Notes: generated by a model from the sequence alone, not told the origin. Shown: positions 13,579 through 46,812, counted from the first letter of the stretch. The stretch: 64,000 bases of DNA from Candidatus Poribacteria bacterium (GCA_965208675.1 OZ242351.1:2732633-2796632), one strand, 5' to 3'. Made by a program: numbers and translations.

Positions 13579-14931
13579 GTGAATGAGTCAGGAACCCCCA
13601 CCAATCTGTTCGACTCTCAGCCGACGTCCGGCAAAAGCGCGGGACCTCTGGCGCACCGGGTTCGCCCCAATTCACTCGACGGATTCGTCGGACAAGAGCA
13701 TCTGCTGGACAAGGGACAGCCTCTTCGTCGTGCAATCGAAGGCGACGTGTTGATGTCCTGCATCTTTTGGGGTCCGCCGGGGTGCGGCAAGACTACGCTG
13801 GCGCACATTATCGCCCAGTATTCAAAAGCGCACTTCGAGCCTATCAACGCGAGCACAACAGGCGTTCCGGAATTGCGTAAACGAATCGCCGCTGCTCAAG
13901 AACGCTTAAAAATCCAAAATCAACCTACCATCCTGTTCTTGGACGAAATCCACCGCTTTAACAAAGCGCAGCAGGATTTTCTGCTGTCCTTCGTGGAAAA
14001 CGGCACAATTGTGCTGATTGGTGCGACTACCGAAAACCCTTCCTTTGAGGTGAATACCCCGCTCCTCTCTCGCATGCAGGTTTACCCGTTCCACCCGCTA
14101 GAAACACGCCACATCCAGCAGATAGTGGATACGGCAATCTGCGATATTGAACGGGGACTTGGCAAGTATCGAGTCACACTTTCGGATGCGGCTATGGAAG
14201 CGCTCGTTCGGATTGCGGACGGCGATGTGCGGCTAGCACTTAATGCGTTGGAACTCGCGGTGCAAACGTGCAAGCCCAATTCGCAGCAAATCCGTCACTT
14301 GGATGCGGAGAGCGTCCGCCGCGCCGCACAGAAACGGATGCTGCGCCACGATAAAGCTGGCGATGAACATTACAACCTAATTTCGGCCTTTATCAAGAGT
14401 ATGCGTGCGTCCGATGCAGACGCTGCCATCTATTGGCTGGCGAGGCTCCTTGAAGCCGGAGAGGACGCGCGTTTCATTGCACGGAGAATGGTAATCTTGG
14501 CGTCTGAGGATGTCGGAAACGCCGACCCACAAGCGTTGTTGATTGCGGACGCGGCGGCACGCGCCGTGGAATTTGTCGGGCTTCCGGAGGCGCAACTCAA
14601 TTTGGCTCAGGCTGCCACCTACCTCGCGTGCGCACCGAAAAGTAATGCCTCATATCTGGCTTTACTAGCGGCTCAGAAAGATGTACGCCAAAAATCCGCC
14701 TACCCGGTACCGCTCCACCTGCGGAACGCACCCACGCAACTGATGCGAGAACTCGGGTACGGAAAGGGATACCAGTACGCTCACGATTTCGAAGAACACA
14801 TCGCCGACATGGAATGCCTCCCCGAACCTCTACACGGGCAACGCTACTATAAACCGACGGATATCGGATATGAAGCGGTCATCCGCGAATATCTGGAAAA
14901 AGTTAAAAACAAAATAGGGCGAACTGATTGA
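13579..14931 (+). CDS. rarA: Replication-associated recombination protein A (AAA+ ATPase RarA/MgsA)
   Basis: 450 aa. [11 protein letters not shown] Walker [17 protein letters not shown] Walker B/sensor, C-terminal MgsA helical domain. TGA stop. Confidence 0.9.
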
Positions 14932-22289: not shown

Positions 22290-22339
22290 ACTTTGGAAAA
22301 TCCGCTTTACCCGGTGCGGCCCCATCTTCGAAACGCACT

Positions 22340-22590
22340 GGCGCAACAGATACGGGCACTCGGTTTCGGGAAATGGTGCCAGTACATTCACGATTTTGAA
22401 GAACACATCGCCTCCATGGAATATCTTCCCGACGCTCTTCACAGATAACGCTCCTAAGAGCCGGTCGACATCGTACATGAAGCGGTCATCCGTGAATATC
22501 TGGAAAAAGTGACAAAACAAAAAAGGGCGAATCAATTGAACCATGTTCGTCTGATGAAGTCTAGCGGAGCGAAGTCAGAATTAGTCTAAT
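22340..22590 (+). pseudogene. Degenerate duplicate of the rarA 3' end (last ~55 codons plus 3' flank)
   Basis: About 75-80% nucleotide identity to 14760-14950. Translates to ...[22 protein letters not shown] against rarA ...[23 protein letters not shown]. The shared downstream motif agtctagcggagcgaag occurs at both sites. Confidence 0.6.
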
Positions 22591-24078: not shown

Positions 24079-24160
24079 TGTTCTTCATTCCTCCTTATAC
24101 CCCTTAATCAAACATAACGACGTTCTGCGATTTTTTCTAGCACTTTTTTTGAAGATGTAA

Positions 24161-24204
24161 CTGTCTGAATCAGGATTTACCGGATTAAAGGATTCCCAGG
24201 ATAT
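24161..24204 (-). promoter_or_regulatory. Conserved promoter core (phased AATCC x3 ... GATTCAGACAGTT) upstream of the 22594-24078 paralog
   Basis: Minus strand TATCCTGGGAATCCTTTAATCCGGTAAATCCTGATTCAGACAG. Followed by the conserved leader AAAAAGTGCTAGAAAAAATCGCAGAACG (24121-24150). Confidence 0.5.
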
Positions 24205-24219
24205 CAGATTAGTCGCGGG

Positions 24220-25765: not shown

Positions 25766-25839
25766 AGTTTTTCGTTCCTCCGTTGCATTATATTAAGACA
25801 CTGTTCTGCGATTTTTTCTAGCACTTTTTTGTGATGTAA

Positions 25840-25883
25840 CTGTCTGACTCAGGATTTACCGGATTAAAGGATTCTCAGGATAT
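25840..25883 (-). promoter_or_regulatory. Conserved promoter core upstream of the 24296-25765 paralog
   Basis: TATCCTGAGAATCCTTTAATCCGGTAAATCCTGAGTCAGACAG plus the conserved leader. Confidence 0.5.
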
Positions 25884-25899
25884 CAGATTTTTCGCGGGC

Positions 25900-28728: not shown

Positions 28729-28822
28729 TTAGTATGACAATGCAAAAGACCGAAATATTACACGGGCAGACAATTTTTCGGTTGAAAGAGAGGATAAGTG
28801 ACAGGGTGTATCTGTTACCGAA

Positions 28823-28866
28823 CTGTCTGACTCAGGATTTACCGGATTAAAGGATTCTCAGGATAA
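28823..28866 (-). promoter_or_regulatory. Conserved promoter core upstream of the 25987-28728 (M16-containing) paralog
   Basis: TTATCCTGAGAATCCTTTAATCCGGTAAATCCTGAGTCAGACAG. The leader differs from the subfamily-A leader. Confidence 0.5.
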
Positions 28867-28882
28867 CAAATTTTTCGCGGGT

Positions 28883-30354: not shown

Positions 30355-30430
30355 CGTAATTCATTCCCTTCCATCTACGCTATACAGAACACAGCTTTTG
30401 AGATTTTTCTAGCACTTTTTGGGTATTTAA

Positions 30431-30474
30431 CTGTCTGAATCAGGATTTACCGGATTAAGGGATTCTCAGGATAA
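30431..30474 (-). promoter_or_regulatory. Conserved promoter core upstream of the 28966-30354 paralog
   Basis: TTATCCTGAGAATCCCTTAATCCGGTAAATCCTGATTCAGACAG plus the conserved leader. Confidence 0.5.
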
Positions 30475-30491
30475 CAAAATACACGCGGGTT

Positions 30492-30557: not shown

Positions 30558-32441
30558 TCATCGAGAGACATCCCATAAAAGCACTGTTCCGTCGTAACTT
30601 CCACTCCCCAGCGTGCTCCCATCCGGGTTGAATGCCAGGGTACTAATGTACGACGTATGCCCCTTCAAGCTTCGTCGCTGCGTCTCCGTCTTGGCATCCC
30701 ACAGAAGGATGATTGCGTCGGCATCCCCACTCGCAAGCGTTCGTCCATTCGGGCTAAACTCTACCGCGGTAACATCTGCCGAGTGACCGTTTAGCGTTCT
30801 ACGGTGCGTCCCCGTGGCAGCATTCCAAAGCTGGACGGAATGGTCGCCGCTCCCACTGGCTATCTTGTTTCCGTCTGAGCTAAAGGCGACGCTCGTGATG
30901 TCCGCGGTATGACCCTTTAGTGTTCGGCGGTGCGCGCCCGTGGCGACATCCCAAAGTCGGATGGTTGCGTCGGTGCACCCGCTTGCCAACGTCGCGCCGT
31001 CTGGGCTGAACGCAAGCGTCGAGCGAGCCGGCCTGTAAACGCGAGGAACGGTGTCCGACGCCTCCCAGTGCAGGTTATGCAGTTGCGCACCCGTCTCGGC
31101 ATTCCACAGGCGGATAGTTGTTTCGCCGTTCCAACTTGCTACCGCTGAGCCATCCGGGCTGAACGCTATGCTGTGGTCTACGCCGTCATCGTTTCGTAAT
31201 GTCCGCAGATATGCACCTGTCTTTACATTCCAAAGGCAGACGGAATGATGCCCATTTCCACCTGCTAACGTTAGCCCATCCGGGCTAAATGCTATGCTAT
31301 GGGCCTCTGATAAATACCGGTCCAGTGACCGCTTGTGCTCGCCTGTCACAGCATCCCATAAACGAATGGGATTCAACCGGCTCGCACTTGCCAACGCCGC
31401 ACCGTTCGGGTTGAACGCTATGCTAATGACGGGTTTTATATGTCCATCCAGCGTCCCTAAGTGCGTATCCGTCACCGGATTCCACAGGCGAATTGTCCCG
31501 TCGTCACTCCCGCTTACCAACGTTGCACTATCCGGGCTGAAGACGACATGAGTGACCCAACCCGTATGTCCTTCTAGCTCCCGCAGCCGTGTTCCTGCCG
31601 CGACATTCCACAATCCGATGGTCGTGCCAGGCCCACCACTTGCCAAGATACTGCCATCCGGGCTGAACGCGACGCTCGAGACCATAGGTATGCGTTCTTC
31701 CAGTTGCCAAAGGTGTACTCCGGTCTTAGCGTTCCAAAGTCGGATGCTATCGCCCCAACCGCCGCTTGCCAGTACGCTGCCATCTGGGCTGAACGCGACC
31801 GCGGTGGCATACTCCGTGTGACCTTCCAGAGTTCGTACAGGTACGCCTGTCTCCACATCCCACAGACGAATAGTCTTGTCATAACTTGCGCCTGCCAACG
31901 TCGAGAAATCCGGGCTGAACGCGGCGGTACCAACGGAATATGTATCTCCCTGCGGAGTACGCAGTTCCAGTGACCGCGTATGTGTTTTAGTCTCGACATC
32001 CCACAGATGAACGGTCGTCTGCGACACACCTGCTAGTGTGCTGCCATCCGGGCTGAAAACCACGTTCAAGGTGCCCTCTGATTTTGCCTCCAGTGTATGT
32101 AGGTGTAAACCCGTCACGGCATCCCACAGACGAACGGTATTGTCCGAACTTCCACTCGCTAGCATGCTGCCATCCGGGCTGAACACTACGCTCGCCACAA
32201 TTCCCGAATGTCCGGTGAGCAGAGCTATCTCTTGATGGGTCGTTGTATCGTAGAGCCAGATACCGATTCCGCTGCCGACTGCAAGCCGAGCGCCATCGGG
32301 GGAATACTGTATTTGACCTATCGCCCCCTTTCCGATCCGCGCTACAACCCCTTCAGGCAAACCCCACTGCGAGGCATCTTGCGAAAAGGCGTTGCACAAG
32401 GTCAAGGAGAACAGTATATGCAAGGATAAAACTGTTTTCAT
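30558..32441 (-). CDS. Secreted WD40 beta-propeller repeat protein (~14 WD repeats)
   Basis: Signal peptide, then reiterated [HS]xxxVxSVAFSPDGxxLASGSxDxTIRLWD units throughout. Confidence 0.9.
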   Translation of the reverse strand: MKTVLSLHILFSLTLCNAFSQDASQWGLPEGVVARIGKGAIGQIQYSPDGARLAVGSGIGIWLYDTTTHQEIALLTGHSGIVASVVFSPDGSMLASGSSDNTVRLWDAVTGLHLHTLEAKSEGTLNVVFSPDGSTLAGVSQTTVHLWDVETKTHTRSLELRTPQGDTYSVGTAAFSPDFSTLAGASYDKTIRLWDVETGVPVRTLEGHTEYATAVAFSPDGSVLASGGWGDSIRLWNAKTGVHLWQLEERIPMVSSVAFSPDGSILASGGPGTTIGLWNVAAGTRLRELEGHTGWVTHVVFSPDSATLVSGSDDGTIRLWNPVTDTHLGTLDGHIKPVISIAFNPNGAALASASRLNPIRLWDAVTGEHKRSLDRYLSEAHSIAFSPDGLTLAGGNGHHSVCLWNVKTGAYLRTLRNDDGVDHSIAFSPDGSAVASWNGETTIRLWNAETGAQLHNLHWEASDTVPRVYRPARSTLAFSPDGATLASGCTDATIRLWDVATGAHRRTLKGHTADITSVAFSSDGNKIASGSGDHSVQLWNAATGTHRRTLNGHSADVTAVEFSPNGRTLASGDADAIILLWDAKTETQRRSLKGHTSYISTLAFNPDGSTLGSGSYDGTVLLWDVSR

Positions 32442-35205: not shown

Positions 35206-35253
35206 TTTCTGGGCGGAAAGAGAGGATAATTATTGAGGTGAATCTGTTGCCAA

Positions 35254-35297
35254 ACTGTCTGAATCCGTATTTACTGGAATAAAGGATTCTTAGGATA
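35254..35297 (-). promoter_or_regulatory. Conserved promoter core (slightly diverged) upstream of the disrupted 32682-35205 paralog
   Basis: TTATCCTAAGAATCCTTTATTCCAGTAAATACGGATTCAGACAG. Confidence 0.45.
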
Positions 35298-35314
35298 ACA
35301 GATTTGTCGCGGGT

Positions 35315-38714: not shown

Positions 38715-38749
38715 CTGTCTGAATCAGGATTTACTGGAGTAAGGATTTA
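38715..38749 (-). promoter_or_regulatory. Partial promoter core upstream of the 37137-38639 paralog, split from its upstream half by a ~140-bp insertion
   Basis: TAAATCCTTACTCCAGTAAATCCTGATTCAGACAG. The matching upstream half (...ATCCTGAAAAG and the hairpin remnant) lies at 38896-38960. Confidence 0.4.
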
Positions 38750-39039
38750 CACAGCTGAACACCCAAAGGTTCGTAGTAGGACAATTTAATGCCCGTTTTT
38801 ACTTAAAAATATGTCAGGTCAAGGGTGTGAAGGACATACCGGACGCGCAATAAATTACGCTACTACAAGCTGAACTGCCTATGTCCTAGGAATACAGGCT
38901 TTTCAGGATAAAAAAATTTTCACGGGTTGAAAATGAAACAGGCGAATGGGTAAAAATAATTGCCTAGCGAGGGGCTGGGGTGAGAGACGTTGGTTGTTTA
39001 ACTTTTCATCCGATAGATGCGCCATTCCCCGTCTACTTT

Positions 39040-39807
39040 TCACATGCTAACGACTAGTCCAAAATTGCTGTATGCATCGGCCATCGGCACGGTCAATCGG
39101 AATTGGAATTCATCGCCGACATATTCACTACCCACGATTGTCGTCTGACGGAAAATTCGACGCCATTTCGCTAGGTTTTCCGGAGATCGAATTGAATCCA
39201 TTGCTTTGTAAGCCGACTCAACTGCCTCGTCTATTTCAGTTTCGGACATACCATCGTCGATTGAAGTCAGGTAGTCATTCAGCATTTTTTCCGGCATCAC
39301 CCCACCGAGAACACTCAAAAGGTTTTCAATAGGTTTCCTGGCATTCTCAGTAGTGAATGGGAGAACCGTCTCCAAATCGAAATCCCTAAACGCATCCACG
39401 AACTTATTCATCACTTGTTCAGCGGGATGCTCTAGATTTGCACCCGAGTCTTCGGAGAAGTGTTCAGCGCTATCCTGTATTATCTCTGCGTTTAGTGATG
39501 ATTTCGGTTCATCCAACTCTGGTTGTTCAGCCATGTCTTCGAGTTGGGCGAAAAAGTCCTCAATTTGCTGCAGCTCTGCGGCAGAGATTCGCAGCGTGTC
39601 TTCTGGCAAAGCGCTATCGATTTCGGCATTTCGCGCCGTACGCGTTTGAGCGGCCGAATCTGAAAACTCCTTTGGCGATGATATTACAATCTCAACCTCT
39701 CGATCCGAATCCTCTTCAGCCGAAATGAACCAGAGTGTTATAATCGTGCCGACTAAAATGAGGGCTACTGCACCGGCTACGGTTTTGTGAAGCGTTCCAA
39801 ATTTCAT
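39040..39807 (-). CDS. Sigma-less family member (TM anchor + acidic linker + periplasmic module) with premature TGA in the KMRK motif
   Basis: Starts MKFGTLHKTVAGAVALILVGTIITL, homologous to the ...MKVGTVPKITAGAVAIIVLAFIGT segment of full-length paralogs. Contains LRISAAELQQIEDFFAQLED and ...SEYVGDEFQFRL...VVSM. The TGA at 39040-39042 is followed in frame by KVDGEWRIYRMKS* (CGA to TGA at the Arg of KMRK). Confidence 0.65.
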   Translation of the reverse strand: MKFGTLHKTVAGAVALILVGTIITLWFISAEEDSDREVEIVISSPKEFSDSAAQTRTARNAEIDSALPEDTLRISAAELQQIEDFFAQLEDMAEQPELDEPKSSLNAEIIQDSAEHFSEDSGANLEHPAEQVMNKFVDAFRDFDLETVLPFTTENARKPIENLLSVLGGVMPEKMLNDYLTSIDDGMSETEIDEAVESAYKAMDSIRSPENLAKWRRIFRQTTIVGSEYVGDEFQFRLTVPMADAYSNFGLVVSM

Positions 39808-39860: not shown

Positions 39861-40598
39861 CTAGCTTTCTCTAACATTGTGCCGGTCTTTACATTCATCG
39901 CGCGGAAAACGCTCCAGCAGCAGGTCAGCGGGTGTGTAATGCCATGCGGCGCAGTAGCGCGTTCGATTGCTGCGATTATCGTGGCTGCCGTGCAGCAGGT
40001 TTGCTGAGAATATCACAACCGAACCTGCCGGCACTTCGACATCAACCGCTTTCGATTCATCGATTTGAACCCAACTGCCATACGTGTTGGGGTTTCTGTG
40101 ATGTTTTGCGATAACTTTCGATTTATGGCTATTGGGAACCACCCGCAAGCAGCCGTTTTCCCGGTCCGCGTCTTGAAGGTAAATCGCGCAGCTTACAACC
40201 CGCCCCGTGTTCGTCCCGAAGTAGAAGTTATCCTGATGCCAGAAGACAGATGTTCCGCCGCCGGGGAGTTTTGGGAAGAACTTTGTCCCAAACACGTCAA
40301 TGTCCGGTCCGATTAGCGGCGCAACGCGGTCAAGGATTTCCGGTTCTTTAGCCAGGGCAACGATGCGCGGCTCAAGAACGCAGACGCCTTGAATTTTGTG
40401 CAAAAAGCCCGGAATCTGCTGACCGTTTTTGTCAATTTCGAATGACCAGTGCGGCGTATCGACAGGGACATGTGCGCTTCGCTTAACCAATTCATCGAAG
40501 ACCGCTACATAATGGGCAAGTTTCTCGCGGGAAATAAGCCTTTCAAAAACGACGTACCCTTCTTCATGAAACCGGATTTCCGCTTTCTCGCTTAACAT
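39861..40598 (-). CDS. Phytanoyl-CoA dioxygenase (PhyH) family Fe(II)/2OG oxygenase
   Basis: 245 aa. WHQD...H facial-triad pattern (VFWHQDNFYF, LLHGSHDN), PhyH-like. Confidence 0.8.
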   Translation of the reverse strand: MLSEKAEIRFHEEGYVVFERLISREKLAHYVAVFDELVKRSAHVPVDTPHWSFEIDKNGQQIPGFLHKIQGVCVLEPRIVALAKEPEILDRVAPLIGPDIDVFGTKFFPKLPGGGTSVFWHQDNFYFGTNTGRVVSCAIYLQDADRENGCLRVVPNSHKSKVIAKHHRNPNTYGSWVQIDESKAVDVEVPAGSVVIFSANLLHGSHDNRSNRTRYCAAWHYTPADLLLERFPRDECKDRHNVRES

Positions 40599-40660: not shown

Positions 40661-41458
40661 CTACAATCCCTTTAGCAATTCCACAAATCGCTTCCAGGCT
40701 TTTTCAACCGTTGCCTTTTCGGCATTACTCGCATCATCAGCCATCCCGTGTCTGAGGAATCCGTGGCCAACGCCGGAATAAATTACCGGTTCATAGCTCA
40801 CGCCTGCTGCGTCAGCGGCGGCTTTGGTGCGTTCAATTGTGGCATTAACTCGATTATCGTTCTCGCCATAAAATCCGTAGACAGGGCATTTAATATCACG
40901 GATGGCTTCGCCGCTTGGCGGAGGACCATAGAAGACAAACGCCCCGGCAATTGTGTCGTCGTTCGCCGCGAACCGAAATGTCTGTCCGCCGCCCCAGCAG
41001 AACCCACTCACAGCAACCTTGTCCGTTGTTGAGGGCAGGTCTCGAAGGTATTTCGCTGTCGCTTTCAAATCGGCTGTAATTTGACCGGCGTCGAGATTCC
41101 GAATGGCTCTGCGAACATCGTCGCCGGACTCGAAACTCTCTGTGCCGCCGCCGTCCATACCTGAAAGCATGTCGGGGCAGATGGCTACAAAACCTGCTTC
41201 AGCGAGTCTGTCGCCGACGAGCCTTACCCAATCGGTCAGTCCGAAAATCTCGTGGATGACAATCACCGAAGTCGCCTGCTCTTTAATCTCAGGAAAAACA
41301 ATAAAGGCATTCACGCTCCGCCCTTTAGTCGACGGGATTTTCACCCATTCGCCGTGCCGCGGCGAATTTTCAAGCTGCTCCTTCGCACTCGCAGCCGCTG
41401 CATCGGATCCGAGTATCAAAGCGAGGCAAATTGTACATATGAAGTTCGGTACTTTCAT
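40661..41458 (-). CDS. Secreted dienelactone hydrolase family protein
   Basis: Signal peptide. VIVIHEIFGL, GFCWGG nucleophile elbow, GVGHGF. Confidence 0.85.
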   Translation of the reverse strand: MKVPNFICTICLALILGSDAAAASAKEQLENSPRHGEWVKIPSTKGRSVNAFIVFPEIKEQATSVIVIHEIFGLTDWVRLVGDRLAEAGFVAICPDMLSGMDGGGTESFESGDDVRRAIRNLDAGQITADLKATAKYLRDLPSTTDKVAVSGFCWGGGQTFRFAANDDTIAGAFVFYGPPPSGEAIRDIKCPVYGFYGENDNRVNATIERTKAAADAAGVSYEPVIYSGVGHGFLRHGMADDASNAEKATVEKAWKRFVELLKGL

Positions 41459-41540
41459 AATTCTGTTCTCCCTACTGTGAATGGTTCGATTTACGTGCCG
41501 GCAGGCGGTTCAGACCGCGTGCGTTTTCGTTCGATTTTAG

Positions 41541-41590
41541 GGACTACCCGATTAAAGAATTTTTAGGATAGCAGATTCTCCGATGAGGTG
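41541..41590 (-). promoter_or_regulatory. Degenerate copy of the promoter core upstream of the dienelactone hydrolase gene
   Basis: TATCCTAAAAATTCTTTAATCGGGTAGTCCC matches the 5' half of the core. The GATTCAGACAG half is absent. Confidence 0.35.
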
Positions 41591-41643
41591 ATACCCAAAG
41601 TGAAGAATTAGCTAGTTTAATACCCGTGCAGGAGGTTTTTCCT

Positions 41644-43317
41644 CTAAAAACGGTAAAACCACGTTGTAGCGAATTCGATTCCGCGTCCGGATTCAAGGGG
41701 TTTGAAAAAGTTCATTCTGGAAATAGGGCTGTCCTCCGAGAACTGTAAACCGATACCGACATCTGTCTTTGGATCAAAGCGGTACGGTTTATCAGATATA
41801 CTCCAAACTTGCCCTTCATTAAGGGACAACACGATGAACCACTCATTCAGAAACCCCCAATGGTACAGATTTGAGAGACGGTATAAATATTCTATATTGA
41901 GCAGGGCGCCGTGATCTCCTGAAAATGCGTAGAGTGGATATCCGTTCAAGAGACCAGGCCCCCCAATAAAGAATTGGCGTTGAATCGGCAGTTCATCCGT
42001 AGCAAAGCCCAACATCAGCCGCGTTTGGACAATGTTATTTCCTTTCCCTACTGCATATCGCAGGTGCAACTGAAACCGCGTAAAATCAAAATCGGAATCA
42101 ACGGCAGGACTGCTGTGCTCGACGAGAAGGGTATTGTGCCAACCGAGGTTTTTGTTTTTCCTAGTGTTCAGGTCGTACGTAAATTCGACACTCCGCAGCC
42201 GCCCGGGGTCTATCCGTGGATTTTCTCTCGCTTTTGGAACTGAATCCCAATTGTAAAGATGCCAATCCGTAGATTTACGCAGGCTTTCGTGTGATTCGGC
42301 GCGCATCGTGAATTTGAGCGAATGCGTGAACTCCCGCGGTTCCCATCGAATCGACATCTCAACCCCTTCTCTTAAATAGTAGTTATGTAGCTGAGTCAGC
42401 CCCAGAACGCTACACCAGACGTACCATCCATCCTCGTAGGACGGGAAAAGATCCGGAGAGACGACAGCGGTGGTGCGATGGATTTGAGCCGTGACGCCCA
42501 AATTCCAGATGTTGGGTTGCCCCTGGATAGCTTCTCCACCCACTCTGTAATTGAGATACTTATTTCCAAATCCGTAGCCAATCTCTCCAAATAATTTTGG
42601 CAGATGCGCTCTAGCCGAGCTAGGGATGTCCCACATCCAGAGCGGTCCCATCTGCCACCGTTTTCCCAGTTCGAGGCGAGTAGCCAGCAACCATCCGGTG
42701 ACACGATTAAACCGAATGAGCGGAACTGGACCGAGATAATAGTTTGAAGAGAGCGCTTTTTCGGCGACGGTAATTATCGCAACGAGCTTTGTGCCGTCAT
42801 TCGTATACTCTAAGGTGACCCGACTAAAATAGGGTAAGAAATCCTTTAAGGTGTCAACTGCTTTGTTGAGGTCTTCAGGTCCGTATTCAAGGCCGCCTCG
42901 AATCTCCGCCTCGGAAACTTTCTGATTTCCTCGAATCCGAATTTCATGAATTGGGTGTCCCGCGGCAGTCCGAAACCGCGTCGTTGGTGGAGTTGGCGAA
43001 CTCTGCCTATCCGGCTGCGTTACAACGATAATTGTTGCTACACGCCTCGAACCGTCATGCTTAATTTCCAAGATGGCCCTATTCAAATCGGGCAAAGGCA
43101 AGGTTGTAATCGCTTTTGTGATATCCTCAGGTGCGTTTTCAAGGGCGCTTCGAATTTGTGCTTCGCTGATTTGCTGATTTCCTTGAATCCGGACTTCATG
43201 AATCGGTTCGCCTTCGGCAGTCCGAAACCGCGTGGAATCGTTTTGCGGATGTGCGCTCGCCGCAACACCAATCTCTACCGTCAAAAATGAAATGACGAGG
43301 AGCATTACGCGGTTCAT
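41644..43317 (-). CDS. Omp85-superfamily outer-membrane beta-barrel protein with two tandem POTRA-like repeats
   Basis: Signal peptide. Duplicated ~75-aa unit (TRFRTAEGEPIHEVRIQGNQQISEAQIR... and TRFRTAAGHPIHEIRIRGNQKVSEAEIR...). A long barrel-like region with alternating hydrophobic residues ends in ...WFYRF, with a terminal Phe. Confidence 0.65.
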   Translation of the reverse strand: MNRVMLLVISFLTVEIGVAASAHPQNDSTRFRTAEGEPIHEVRIQGNQQISEAQIRSALENAPEDITKAITTLPLPDLNRAILEIKHDGSRRVATIIVVTQPDRQSSPTPPTTRFRTAAGHPIHEIRIRGNQKVSEAEIRGGLEYGPEDLNKAVDTLKDFLPYFSRVTLEYTNDGTKLVAIITVAEKALSSNYYLGPVPLIRFNRVTGWLLATRLELGKRWQMGPLWMWDIPSSARAHLPKLFGEIGYGFGNKYLNYRVGGEAIQGQPNIWNLGVTAQIHRTTAVVSPDLFPSYEDGWYVWCSVLGLTQLHNYYLREGVEMSIRWEPREFTHSLKFTMRAESHESLRKSTDWHLYNWDSVPKARENPRIDPGRLRSVEFTYDLNTRKNKNLGWHNTLLVEHSSPAVDSDFDFTRFQLHLRYAVGKGNNIVQTRLMLGFATDELPIQRQFFIGGPGLLNGYPLYAFSGDHGALLNIEYLYRLSNLYHWGFLNEWFIVLSLNEGQVWSISDKPYRFDPKTDVGIGLQFSEDSPISRMNFFKPLESGRGIEFATTWFYRF

Positions 43318-43430
43318 CTGGCACCTCCTTTAGGTACAATCCGTATGCTTCCCGTTGTGAAATCGGAACTTCGGCCATATTCAACTACAAAATCCAGATA
43401 AATTTCTTGCCACTTTTATCGGGTGATAAA

Positions 43431-43474
43431 CAGTCTGAATCAGGATTTACTGGATCAAAGGATTCTCAGAATAG
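43431..43474 (-). promoter_or_regulatory. Intact conserved promoter core upstream of the Omp85/POTRA gene
   Basis: TATTCTGAGAATCCTTTGATCCAGTAAATCCTGATTCAGACTG, about 115 bp upstream of the ATG at 43317. Confidence 0.5.
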
Positions 43475-43491
43475 CAGATTTTTAGCGGTAT

Positions 43492-43527
43492 GAAAAGAAA
43501 AAAGGCGAATGGATTGAACCATTCGCC
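43492..43527 (-). terminator. Intrinsic terminator (same hairpin family) after the orphan module fragment, upstream of the Omp85 gene
   Basis: GGCGAATGGttcaatCCATTCGCC + TTTTTTCTTTTC on the minus strand. Confidence 0.55.
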
Positions 43528-43544
43528 TTGTGTAGTTTTTGGAC

Positions 43545-43710
43545 TAGGAATTCAGGTTAGTGATGGTACACCTCATCTTCAATTTCATGAATGTGCCATG
43601 TTCCACCGACGCTGGCACACCAAACGTTCTCCAGCGGAAGTGCAATTCATCGCCGACATGCACACTGCTCAAAATCCCGACCCAATAAGGCTCTGTAGAT
43701 ATTTCACCTA
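43545..43710 (-). pseudogene. Orphan fragment of the family C-terminal module
   Basis: Minus-strand translation ...ILSSVHVGDELHFRWRTFGVPASVEHGTFMKLKMRCTITNLNS* resembles SSEYVGDEFHFRL...KMRK. There is no upstream ORF. Confidence 0.5.
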
Positions 43711-44026
43711 ACTAGACGACCGAATTAACGAAACCGAGAAACCCAAGATGGCATTCGGCAAGGCACTCAGACCAAGAAAAGATTCGCCGATAGTGCTTGG
43801 TTATGTTTTTAAACTATCCATTAGAGTCTTTCATGACAAAGACAGGCATTATAGCATTTAAGTGACGGCTTTTGGCACGCGGGAAACAACCGGCATTGCA
43901 CCCCAGTAGGTTAAACTATACGAATGAATCATGTTCATTGGTGAAACCCTGAACTAACGACCCAACACAGATGATTCGTGGCGCTGTCCCGCGCTTAGCG
44001 TGTAGCGTAATGGATTGCTCAAACCA

Positions 44027-44410
44027 TCAGCCGTGATACGGTATTGTGAGATTCTGATTCAGTTGTTTTCGATTGTTCTCTGATTTCCAAGAGGGAGAAG
44101 GTGCCGACAAAGAATTAAAATTATTAGTTGCTGAATTCCTCTCGCTAACCTCAGCTTTGTACGATTTTATTAGATTGACTGTTGCCCACACAAACAACGC
44201 GATCGCAACCACCACAAACACAAACATAACCGGTCTTAGTTTTTCACTCCATGGTGTCCGTTTTCCCCAAGCCGCCGCTGCCGCGGAAAAGAGAAGCAAC
44301 CCCGTCATGAATAACGTCTCTGTAGTAACACCCGTAACCGTGATTTGAATTAGTATAATAATCAATCCTATTACGAGGGTAACCAAGGCAATTCGTTTTT
44401 TGCGATTCAT
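44027..44410 (-). CDS. Small hypothetical membrane protein (3 predicted TM helices)
   Basis: Start MNRKKRIALVTLVIGLIIILI... Three hydrophobic stretches. Confidence 0.45.
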   Translation of the reverse strand: MNRKKRIALVTLVIGLIIILIQITVTGVTTETLFMTGLLLFSAAAAAWGKRTPWSEKLRPVMFVFVVVAIALFVWATVNLIKSYKAEVSERNSATNNFNSLSAPSPSWKSENNRKQLNQNLTIPYHG

Positions 44411-45130
44411 AAAAACCCTTCCATAAATGAGCATATAGTCATGGCACAATTATAACGGCAGTTTCCATTGTTATGCCGTTTAGCAATCGGTGTTTTTTCT
44501 TAGCCTCTCGAATTTGCTGTGAGATGGAACATTCCTCCACTCGTTGAAACACCTCATAATGATCATGTTTAACGAACTCGTAACCTTTTTGCAAGTCACG
44601 CTGCAGACGCACGCGCATTCATCATTCGAATACAAGATGTCCTCGTTCTTCAAACATATCGGCGAGGTGAATCCCTATAGAAACTGAAAATTTGCCATCT
44701 TCAGTTGTGTGTATAGCCATGAATTTATCAATGTCGCTACCTTCAACTGACGCAAGAGTGCCTAATCATAGGGCAATCCGGAGATTCTCCTTATGTATCT
44801 CAAGGGCATTTAGGTGAGTTTTACGTGTTTGCCTGAAAGATTCACAAGCATGATCGATTCTCCTTATCAAGTGTACGTGATGCTGCTAGACATTGGTTTC
44901 TTTTACAGAAAGCTGTGTCACTATGGCATTCGGCGAGTCAAACTGAGCAAAGAACCAGTTTGTCACATCTTCGACCGTTTTACACAAGCGTAACAATTCC
45001 GCCTCAGTGTCGTAACAATACACGGATTTTTACGGACGTAATCTGTGGTGTAAGCAACGGAACTGGAGCAAGGTGTTCCTTGATGAGAACTCATGGGGCG
45101 GGTTGCGAGTTATTGTGAAACTTCTCTCTA

Positions 45131-46564
45131 CTATTCATAAATCTGCCATGTACCGTTCTCTTTTCGCATCTTATGAAGAAAGTCGGGCATTTCCGGCATC
45201 TCAGGCATCTGAAATGTCTCGGGAATCTCTGAAATGTCCTGCCCAAACCTTCCTAGCATCTCTGACATTTCCGGCAACTGGCTCCTTAATCGAAAGTGGA
45301 ATTCCTCGCCGACAAACTCACTGCTCACAATCTCTGCTTGACTAAACATCTGTTTAAGGATTGGTTGCATCATTCCTTGTATCATCTGAAGTGTCTCATC
45401 TGCCTCGTCTTCTGGCAAACCACTATCATAAAAAATTTCCTCAATCTCTTGTGGTAACCCTCCTAAAGGCAAACTACTTTCAAACTCTTCTTTGGCTGCA
45501 CCTGTCAGAAATGAGAGCATCGCGCCAGCGTCAAAATTCCGGAACGCCTTCAGATAAGCGTTCATTACATCTTCAGCGGATTGAGTGGTGTCTTCTGGCG
45601 TCGCCCATGAGTCGGTGGCATCGCCCGCATCGGCGTTCTTATCTAAGGCTTCGTCCGTTACTTGTTGCGACGTATCCGTCGCCGAATGCGAGTCTGCCTC
45701 GTCAAGTTGAGCGAAGAAGTCCTCAATCTGCTGCATCTCTTCTGCGGAGATTCGCGGTTTATCTTCACGCGGGGGTGCGGTGACTGCATTACTTCGTATG
45801 GCATCCGTTTGGATGGCCGGTTGCGCGGACTCTGTTGAAGTCACAATCTCAACCGACGAGGACGTATCCTCTTCTGACGAAATGAACTGGCGCGTCCCGA
45901 TGTAGGCTAGTATGACGACGGCTACTACCCCCGCGGTGATTTTGGGTATTGTTCCAACTTTCATGACCGTTAATCCTCCTGAATAGATTTTTTTGAGTGT
46001 CGACGCGGGAATAGCGAACACCCCAGTGAGCAGATGACCCAACCGCTTGGAGAGTTTCTGTTTGGCACGCGAAAGCCGTACCGAAACCGCTTTGTACGAC
46101 AACCCATGCGTCCTCGTCAACTCGTCGTAGCTTGCGCCTTCAATATAGTACGACCGGGCAATCTCCCGCTCACCTGGCGAAAGCGTCTCTATCGCACGGC
46201 GAATGAGTTCGCTCTGTTCACGGTGTATCAACTCGTCGTCCGGTGCATCCGAGGGCGATAGTGTGTGCTCCCCCACCTCATTGATGGACACGGTATCAAT
46301 CCGCTGTTCTCGCTGCCAGTTGAGCGCACGATTTCGCGCAATTTTTGCCAGCCAGTTTTTAAACTTTTTCGCATCCTCGAGGTCTGGCAGGCCGCGATAA
46401 GCGTTGAGAAAAGAATCTTGCACGACCTCTTCGGCGTCTTGGGGATTTTTCACGATTCCGATAACAATCGCATAGACATAACCATAATGCACCCGCAATA
46501 GATCGACGAATGCACCTTCGTCCCCGGATTGTGCGCGAGCAATTGTGTCCTCGTTAATAATCAC
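45131..46564 (-). CDS. ECF sigma-TM-periplasmic module fusion protein (subfamily A paralog); lacks the conserved promoter core upstream
   Basis: 477 aa. GTG start. Sigma regions 2 and 4, TM (KITAGVVAVVILAYIGT), PRISAEEMQQIEDFF, C-terminus ...SEFVGEEFHFRL...LHKMRKENGTWQIYE. Confidence 0.8.
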   Translation of the reverse strand: MIINEDTIARAQSGDEGAFVDLLRVHYGYVYAIVIGIVKNPQDAEEVVQDSFLNAYRGLPDLEDAKKFKNWLAKIARNRALNWQREQRIDTVSINEVGEHTLSPSDAPDDELIHREQSELIRRAIETLSPGEREIARSYYIEGASYDELTRTHGLSYKAVSVRLSRAKQKLSKRLGHLLTGVFAIPASTLKKIYSGGLTVMKVGTIPKITAGVVAVVILAYIGTRQFISSEEDTSSSVEIVTSTESAQPAIQTDAIRSNAVTAPPREDKPRISAEEMQQIEDFFAQLDEADSHSATDTSQQVTDEALDKNADAGDATDSWATPEDTTQSAEDVMNAYLKAFRNFDAGAMLSFLTGAAKEEFESSLPLGGLPQEIEEIFYDSGLPEDEADETLQMIQGMMQPILKQMFSQAEIVSSEFVGEEFHFRLRSQLPEMSEMLGRFGQDISEIPETFQMPEMPEMPDFLHKMRKENGTWQIYE

Positions 46565-46812
46565 TGTGAGTTGTTCCTCTCTTTAACCTAATAAAGACAC
46601 GGTTTTACGACTTTTTCTACTTCTTTTTTGCTTTCGTTCTCCTGTTGTTGCTATTTCCTTTCAAAACTGGGGGACGAACCATGCTGCGATTAGTGATTGC
46701 GGAACCAACTGACGCCGTGCTAAAATTGAAATTTGATTCCCTAATTCTTTCGCCGCTAGATGCCACCATCGCGCATCATCCGACATAATACTCCGCTTGT
46801 CAGTTTGACACT

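Follow-up and report, generated by a model that had tools for sequence, protein, structure and literature searches.

The question raised by this locus is whether genes that stand behind near-identical intergenic sequences are thereby controlled together. The window, a stretch of 64,000 nt from a Candidatus Poribacteria bacterium (GCA_965208675.1 OZ242351.1:2732633-2796632), carries within a long run of minus-strand genes an Omp85-superfamily gene (41644-43317) and, next to it, a gene for a secreted dienelactone hydrolase (DLH; 40661-41458). An earlier note, made from the sequence alone, placed both genes behind copies of a terminator and promoter cassette known from the adjacent array of sigma-fusion genes, whose products join an extracytoplasmic-function (ECF) sigma domain to other domains. 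It proposed that the envelope genes belong to the regulon of the array and that the Omp85 protein could be a dedicated transporter of the TpsB type. The explanation that we consider the best, with fair though not high confidence, is that the Omp85 gene belongs to the sigma-fusion neighborhood, that its 5′ flank is a duplicated terminator plus a repeat arm, and that this flank does not demonstrate a shared promoter.

The cassette itself is real. Its 28-mer core occurs six times in the window, where none would be expected, and a profile of the array intergenic unit built from the other copies matches 43412-43530 (E=2e-34), the terminator and core upstream of the Omp85 gene spanning 43429-43529. 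The terminator and core described earlier are thus a true copy of the array unit; it is the word promoter that lacks support, as the core is mostly a repeat arm and has no sigma-70 sites. Read toward the gene, the flank consists of what remains of a sigma-fusion family gene at its 3′ end, a terminator hairpin belonging to that decayed paralogue, block A, the core and a leader remnant (Table 1). Hairpins of the same type follow the other genes of the array. The relic includes a copy of the repeat D11 (43635-43676), and by blastn it matches the 3′ ends of sigma-fusion genes in four related loci (L002, L003, L006 and L014). Because the cassette is attached to this decayed paralogue (43540-43720), it reached the Omp85 gene by segmental duplication, within a duplicated or recombined gene end. 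Among the nearest relatives, L001 has a full cassette before its Omp85 gene; L002 and L003 keep the terminator and the downstream leader there, and 64 nt with block A and the core are missing.

Two further observations concern the relic and its surroundings. Its closest DNA relative is the 3′ end of the L002 sigma gene that precedes Omp85, not that of the neighboring intact gene. Between the relic and the first sigma-fusion gene of the array (sig45131) lies about 1.4 kb (43720-45130) that resembles neither any of the 67 related Poribacteria loci nor other parts of the window. This stretch holds an open reading frame of 140 aa with several hydrophobic segments (44027-44449). L001 has neither this insert nor the relic.

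A search of the minus strand for sigma-70 -35 and -10 elements spaced by 16-18 nt gave none in 43318-43530 or 41459-41643, nor any in the other cassette cores, in a scan that did not cover extended -10 or ECF-type promoters. Rfam had no match at E<=1 on either strand of 22-47 kb. Folding of the core plus leader as RNA, on either strand, gave z-scores of -1.0 to +0.9, which makes a structured RNA unlikely. Readings of the core as a sigma-54, a SigR-type (GGAAT-N18-GTT) or a PvdS-type (TAAAT-N16-CGT) promoter, or as an IHF site, a DnaA box or a CsrA sponge, were dropped by eye, for wrong spacing or missing key bases.

The conservation of the core has a different explanation. It is a series of four 9-nt units, (A)AATCCTGN, closed by ATTCWGACA, and the window cores match the arm ATCCTGnAAATCCTnnAATCCTGnAAATCCTGATTCWGACA. 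When metagenome contigs were searched with a 24-nt pattern from the core, it was found in at least 120 of them, from lakes, soils, termite guts and bioreactors, with unrelated flanks and GC contents of 30-64% (sampled as loci L068-L187). It is also present on plasmids of the Nostocales Dolichospermum and Anabaena. A match on a Rhizobium plasmid was rejected as a mere (CAGGATTTA)5 microsatellite, and a phage collection gave no match. In the metagenome contigs the sequence takes the form of solo arms, of tandem arrays or of a palindrome about 105 nt long (TGTCTGAATCAGGATTTnCAGGATT ... AATCCTGnAAATCCTGATTCAGACA). The palindrome has 45-nt arms of 9-nt CAGGATTTn units, with termini TGTCTGAATCAGG... 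(e.g., L136 1796-1900 and L115 388-1022); the window copies are solo arms without the inverted partner. In the sampled contigs the repeat is found in 52 cases at co-oriented gene starts and in 50 at convergent 3′ ends, and neither overall nor among solo arms (15 vs. 20) is an orientation toward gene starts preferred. We read the conserved core as being, for the most part, a single arm of this widespread palindrome, co-amplified with the array, and not as a promoter consensus.

The repeat has a gene of its own in some places. Outward-facing arms flank a gene for a GxxExxY (PDDEXK_3) protein of about 125 aa (TIGR04256, 132 bits) in at least 10 contigs, or about 10% of those sampled. One of these, L105 281-825, is a complete unit of 545 bp with arms around the gene, and the arm encodes the C-terminal tail of this PD-(D/E)XK nuclease. 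Relatives at least 80% identical to the protein occur in several orders of Bacteroidota and in Desulfobacteraceae; tblastn found no GxxExxY gene in the window or in the 67 Poribacteria loci. Literature searches returned no description of the repeat sequence and no relevant work on GxxExxY. The 105-nt palindrome together with its gene may be an undescribed mobile element. It resembles the Correia elements of Neisseria and the REP/RAYT systems in being a short, dispersed, intergenic palindrome with long inverted arms, sometimes near gene starts, with which a small nuclease-fold gene is associated. It differs from them in its unrelated sequence, in arms built of 9-nt iterations, in its partner gene (GxxExxY PD-(D/E)XK, not RAYT or a DDE transposase) and in crossing phyla, from Cyanobacteria to Poribacteria and to contigs of widely differing GC content.

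Solo arms are found at other Poribacteria sites as well. An orthologous arm lies at L027 19276-19320, L028 19032-19074 and L053 16868-16910, beside a divergently oriented PhyH gene. The conserved neighbor is on the side opposite to what a promoter would lead one to expect, and the gene on the downstream side differs (PhyH, none and a DNA methylase, respectively). In an intergenic zone of L017 (17820-18200), several tandem variants of the arm terminus (AAATCCGCGATTCAGAC) are interspersed with REP-like hairpins (GGTAGGCACAAGGCCTACC); the zone lies upstream of a gene of 728 aa that is unrelated.

A second conserved element, block B (AAAAAGTGCTAGAAAAA...), is distinct from the core and is shared by all sigma-fusion genes of about 475 aa. 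The order of the family 5′ region is terminator, block A (CCCGCGAAAAATCTGnTA), arm and block B (AAAAAGTGCTAGAAAAAATCGCAGAAC..CGTC), the last lying some 30 nt from the start codon. Upstream of every such gene in all genomes there is a match to a profile of block B, also at the heads of arrays, where the genes have no arm; sig45131 is a case in point, with block B at 46593-46630 and no cassette or core match upstream. The same profile found no match before DLH or before Omp85 in the window. In a targeted test it scored 19.4 bits before sig45131 and did not exceed 1.3 bits before Omp85 in any of four genomes. In the L004 array the arm is unrecognizable throughout and its position is filled; both blocks, A and B, are still present. 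A reading of that position as an "empty site" with a GTTA target duplication is not sustained, since the filler has the same length (51 vs. 50 nt) and a decayed arm is equally likely. Because block B is universal for the 475-aa genes and absent before Omp85 and DLH, what these two genes have in common with the sigma-fusion family is its dispensable part, not a family-wide element. Block B (AAAAAGTGCTAGAAAAAATCGCAGAAC..CGTC) may be an autoregulated promoter of the 475-aa genes. The cassette, then, does not establish the regulon that was proposed.

Could block A and the arm nevertheless form a working promoter, either as an extended -10 (TGnTATCCT) with the arm as 5′ untranslated region or from within the arm, making sigma-fusion genes, Omp85 and DLH one regulon? 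Each array gene needs a promoter of its own because a strong terminator precedes it. Several facts weigh against the reading that we favor. In L002 and L003 the DLH gene starts 18 nt after the arm, with only block A and the arm before its ribosome-binding site; because a strong terminator lies directly before these, the promoter there must be in block A or the arm unless there is read-through. The TGC of block A and the TATTCT of the arm would together make a plausible extended -10-like string, TGnTAT(C/T)CT, at the junction. The string is found in all window copies except that at 38889, and L004 has TGTTAAAAT at the junction position. All 38 core matches in the Poribacteria loci are co-oriented with the downstream gene, and in four distant genomes (L041, L049, L050 and L060) it lies before Omp85-family paralogues too, so the arm could have been locally co-opted as a regulatory site in Poribacteria. 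The uniform orientation can, however, for the most part be put down to the tandem duplication of a single unit, and in the sampled contigs the orientation of the arm is unbiased. The core has been deleted before Omp85 in L002 and L003 with the gene intact, and both the window and L001 show the DLH copy in decay. Many sigma-fusion genes, the first of the arrays among them, lack the arm and yet have block B, and the scan found no -35/-10 pair. On this balance a promoter shared in this way is possible but rather unlikely.

A bolder version joins the two lines of thought: the core would be the terminal inverted repeat of an undescribed selfish element that crosses phyla, with an autonomous form of about 545 bp (the GxxExxY PD-(D/E)XK nuclease between 45-nt arms) and abundant palindromic or tandem derivatives of about 105 nt, of which a solo arm was captured in the sigma-fusion array and co-opted along with block A to serve as promoter or operator for Omp85 and the secreted hydrolase alike. 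Taken as a whole we hold this to be doubtful, somewhat more so than the shared promoter. In the explanation that we prefer, the 5′ flank of Omp85 is a segmentally duplicated piece of the array intergenic unit, made up in order of the relic 3′ end, its terminator, block A, the 45-nt solo arm and a decayed family leader. The conservation of the core comes from its repeat-arm origin and its co-amplification with the array, and the Omp85 gene would be coupled to the sigma-fusions across the phylum, as a target of the regulator or as its envelope partner. Candidates for the Omp85 transcription start are the extended -10-like TGCTATTCT at the junction of block A and arm, or the conserved A/T-rich leader. 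Because the conserved core is mostly a repeat-element arm, its presence does not establish co-regulation with the sigma-factor genes.

It is the gene neighborhood that links the Omp85 family to the sigma-fusions. Of 49 loci, 43 have a co-oriented gene, its ECF-sigma domain at the N-terminus, that ends no more than 6 kb upstream of where the Omp85-family genes start; on the downstream side the figure is 3 of 58. The connection between the envelope gene and the sigma-fusions suggested by the earlier note is therefore retained, by synteny and not by the cassette. The domains joined to sigma vary across the phylum: BNR/sortilin propellers, ankyrin repeats, M16 peptidase-like domains and the C-terminal domain typical of the family (the C-domain). 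Because the neighborhood is conserved and co-oriented, independently of the cassette, it is likely that the Omp85 family is functionally coupled to the membrane-anchored sigma-fusions, working with them or being controlled by them; the regulator could have the Omp85 protein as its target or as its partner in the envelope. The arrangement recalls cell-surface signaling by FecA-FecR-FecI, in which an outer-membrane β-barrel gene is likewise linked to an ECF sigma that needs coupling to the envelope, and here the sigma is fused via a transmembrane helix to periplasmic domains. The likeness is one of analogy only: the barrel is of Omp85 type, not a TonB-dependent transducer, and a single polypeptide holds both sigma and sensor. 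Nothing relevant on Poribacteria together with ECF or Omp85 came up in literature searches.

One locus shows an additional envelope gene in this setting. In L010 (8179-9333) a membrane-anchored, proline-rich protein with a C-terminal PA14 domain is encoded between two tandem Omp85-family genes. Gaps of like size separate tandem Omp85-family genes in other loci, and the PA14 protein is absent from the window.

What kind of Omp85 protein is it? The open reading frame has a strong ribosome-binding site, its ATG being preceded by AAAGGAGGTG, and encodes 557 aa with a signal peptide. The barrel family Omp85 (PF01103) matches residues 376-534 (27.4 bits vs. a gathering threshold of 24), POTRA_1 residues 38-63 (26.4 vs. 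23) and POTRA residues 123-177 (23.9 vs. 21.3). The gene call, and the POTRA and barrel domains for which a profile search had been proposed, are thus confirmed. The internal duplication pointed out earlier is also there: each of the peptides that were quoted begins one of two units with 56% identity over 73 aa (E=3e-29), and in a full-length AlphaFold model both units take a β-α-α-β-β fold, with a predicted local distance difference test score (pLDDT) of about 65-86. The barrel was poor in that model (pLDDT 51). It was then modeled separately on a more diverse alignment, which gave 16 long strands (pLDDT 73, predicted TM-score 0.75). The top 50 Foldseek matches of this barrel in the PDB are TamA, BamA, Sam50 and Toc75, with TM-scores of 0.5-0.6 to the TamA, BamA and Sam50 barrels, and FhaC is not among them. 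In a search with the family profile, the TamA barrel was the nearest solved sequence (E=0.03). The L6 loop, tested against (V/I)RG(Y/F), reads QRQFFIGGPGLLNGY; GG and GY are invariant in the family and the arginine is replaced by asparagine or serine, the window protein having LNGY with asparagine at the usual Omp85 arginine position. Two points should be set against the assignment: the Pfam scores of the window protein are marginal, barely above the gathering thresholds, and confidence in the barrel model is only moderate. PF01103 scores in its homologues are 28-47 bits, some of them reaching 40-47. As modeled, the product is an outer-membrane protein of BamA/TamA type, with a signal peptide, two predicted POTRA domains and a predicted 16-strand barrel.

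Scoring of 495 homologues of the window protein, and comparison of the 67 related genome loci (L001-L067), place it in a family confined to this phylum: all 67 loci are from Candidatus Poribacteria. Its nearest relatives are in L001 (83% aa identity), L002 (79%) and L003 (78%). Family members come in lengths of 557, 715, about 800 and 894 aa, the long ones having up to five POTRA-like units and, at the N-terminus, an extra domain of about 170 aa. Of the POTRA-like units, the window protein retains just the two next to the barrel. Because relatives carry from two to five such units, two POTRAs are a truncated state of the Poribacteria family and not a hallmark of TpsB; the paralogue family is specific to Poribacteria, and the window gene is one of its shortened members.

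The two units are nevertheless what suggested a TpsB-like two-partner-secretion transporter dedicated to a specific cargo, and TpsB proteins such as FhaC and ShlB do combine two POTRA domains with an Omp85-type barrel. Some distant paralogues also have weak ShlB matches (L041 with 22.8 bits against a gathering threshold of 22.7, the others below threshold). The window protein itself has no match to ShlB (PF03865) or POTRA_2 (PF08479) at E<=0.1, its nearest structures are TamA, BamA, Sam50 and Toc75 and not FhaC, and its relatives vary in POTRA number and carry the extra N-terminal domain. No protein with a Haemagg_act or TpsA-type (TPS) domain was found among the 16 window open reading frames scanned (18.5-48.6 kb), and the conserved neighbors are sigma-fusions and the PA14 membrane protein, not large exoproteins. 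The TpsB assignment has accordingly been given up as hardly credible. Given that its closest structures and profiles are BamA and TamA, and that NCBI names one homologue a "BamA/TamA family outer membrane protein", the gene might instead be the housekeeping BamA or TamA of the organism, with its position at the array incidental. It scores 19.4 bits against a cut-off of 297 with the BamA equivalog (TIGR03303) and 18.7 against 625 with that of TamA (NF047950), and has two POTRA units where these have five and three. Most genomes have two to three Omp85-family paralogues per locus, the L6 loop has asparagine for the conserved arginine, and the linkage to sigma-fusion genes is conserved. A scan of the neighboring open reading frames found no TamB-like or BAM-lipoprotein gene adjacent, the neighbors being DLH, PhyH and sigma-fusions. 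A housekeeping role is very improbable, if slightly less so than the TpsB role.

In sum, the protein shares with the TamA/BamA branch (E. coli TamA, 4C00; BamA; mitochondrial Sam50) the succession of POTRAs and a 16-strand barrel, a PF01103 match over threshold, the L6 loop FF-x-GG...GY, the aromatic C-terminus and the best structural matches. It departs from that branch in falling far below both equivalog cut-offs, in POTRA number and the novel N-terminal domain of its relatives, in the loss of the VRGY/F arginine, and in belonging to a multi-copy family that the genome scan finds in Poribacteria only and tied to ECF-sigma fusion genes. It is a new Omp85-superfamily member, specific to its lineage and set in a conserved sigma-fusion neighborhood.

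Table 1. Features of the Omp85 gene, its flanks and its neighbors, in window coordinates
Feature	Position	Strand	Remarks
Omp85-superfamily outer-membrane protein gene	41644-43317	-	557 aa; short form of a Poribacteria-wide family; open reading frame plus ribosome-binding site, Pfam
POTRA-like unit 1	43015-43233	-	aa 29-101; POTRA_1 match; β-α-α-β-β model, pLDDT 77-86
POTRA-like unit 2	42760-42981	-	aa 113-186; POTRA match; model pLDDT 65-77
Predicted 16-stranded β-barrel	41647-42750	-	aa 190-557; L6-like loop FFIGGPGLLNGY; C-terminal ...WFYRF
Family leader remnant	43375-43420	-	GATAAAAGTGGCAAGAAATTT...TGTAGTTGAATAT; colinear with block B in alignment; not recognizable by profile
Core (solo repeat arm)	43429-43478	-	four 9-nt units (A)AATCCTGN, then ATTCAGAC; core profile E=2e-13
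Block A	43479-43497	-	CCGCTAAAAATCTGCTA; from alignments
Intrinsic terminator hairpin and T-run	43502-43529	-	11-bp stem with 6 GC pairs, then TTTTCTTTTC; belongs to the decayed upstream paralogue
Relic 3′ end of sigma-fusion family gene	43540-43720	-	translates ...GILSSVHVGDELHFRWRTF...FMKLKMRCTITNLNS*
First sigma-fusion gene of the array (sig45131)	45131-46564	-	ECF sigma, transmembrane helix, C-terminal domain; Pfam
Window cores	24159-24208, 25838-25887, 28821-28869, 30429-30477, 35253-35302, 38715-38748, 43429-43478		
Degenerate block A and arm before DLH	41544-41582	-	terminal CCTGATTCAGAC lost
Insertion of about 35 nt with GC hairpin	41485-41537	-	hairpin GCGGTCTGAACCGC; upstream of DLH; flanked by 9-nt direct repeats AAATCGAAC
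Secreted dienelactone hydrolase (DLH)	40661-41458	-	265 aa; PF01738 E=9e-45, 153 bits vs. 21; YghX-like 131 bits
PhyH-family 2-oxoglutarate-Fe(II) oxygenase	39861-40598	-	next gene after DLH; PF05721 E=4e-34
Membrane-anchored protein with sigma-fusion-family C-terminal domain	39040-39807	-	lacks a sigma domain; no further gene before the next cassette, which is degenerate

The hydrolase was named correctly. Besides its Pfam match, it has an N-terminus that by inspection resembles a Sec signal peptide (MKVPNFICTICLALILGSDAAAASA), and the motifs of a Cys/Ser-Asp-His triad (GFCWGG, ENDNR and GHGF) are visible in its sequence. The pairing of DLH with PhyH is kept in L001-L003. A terminator scan predicted none between Omp85 and DLH or the genes downstream. 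Because the gaps are also short, Omp85, DLH, PhyH and the membrane-anchored family protein are probably a four-gene operon headed by Omp85. The degenerate core reported before DLH is present; taken alone it is weak (E=0.0015 with the cassette profile, E=0.12 with the core-only profile), and its homology rests on synteny, since L002 and L003 have an intact counterpart at the matching place. There, an additional sigma-fusion gene is followed by a terminator and then by an intact core, with 18 nt between the end of the core and the DLH start. Both that sigma-fusion gene and the terminator are gone from the window and L001, where a degenerate core is left. Compared in this way, the window copy is a decaying relic left after loss of the intervening sigma-fusion gene. 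The insertion upstream of DLH is common to the window and L001 and is absent from L002 and L003 in the alignment.

As to the array as a whole, large arrays of ECF-sigma domains fused via a transmembrane helix to extracytoplasmic domains (the family C-domain or M16 peptidase-like) occupy window 22594-46564 and occur also in L001-L016. Inside the window array stands a gene for a WD40 β-propeller (30558-32441) whose DNA has a periodicity of 126 nt (repeat families D7 and D12). A direct repeat of 219 nt, 77% identical, is found 7.6 kb apart at 14701-14919 and 22308-22526, the latter just past the last gene of the array.

In closing, near-identical intergenic cassettes in tandem arrays can be duplicated terminators with repeat arms instead of promoters, and calling a regulon from such cassettes needs transcription start site data. 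If the GxxExxY-linked repeat is mobile, it would give a function to a very large uncharacterized protein family (at least 7995 candidates at E<=1e-20). For the Poribacteria themselves, the phylum-wide pairing of an Omp85 barrel with membrane-anchored ECF-sigma fusions suggests a module for envelope signaling or assembly that is specific to these sponge symbionts.

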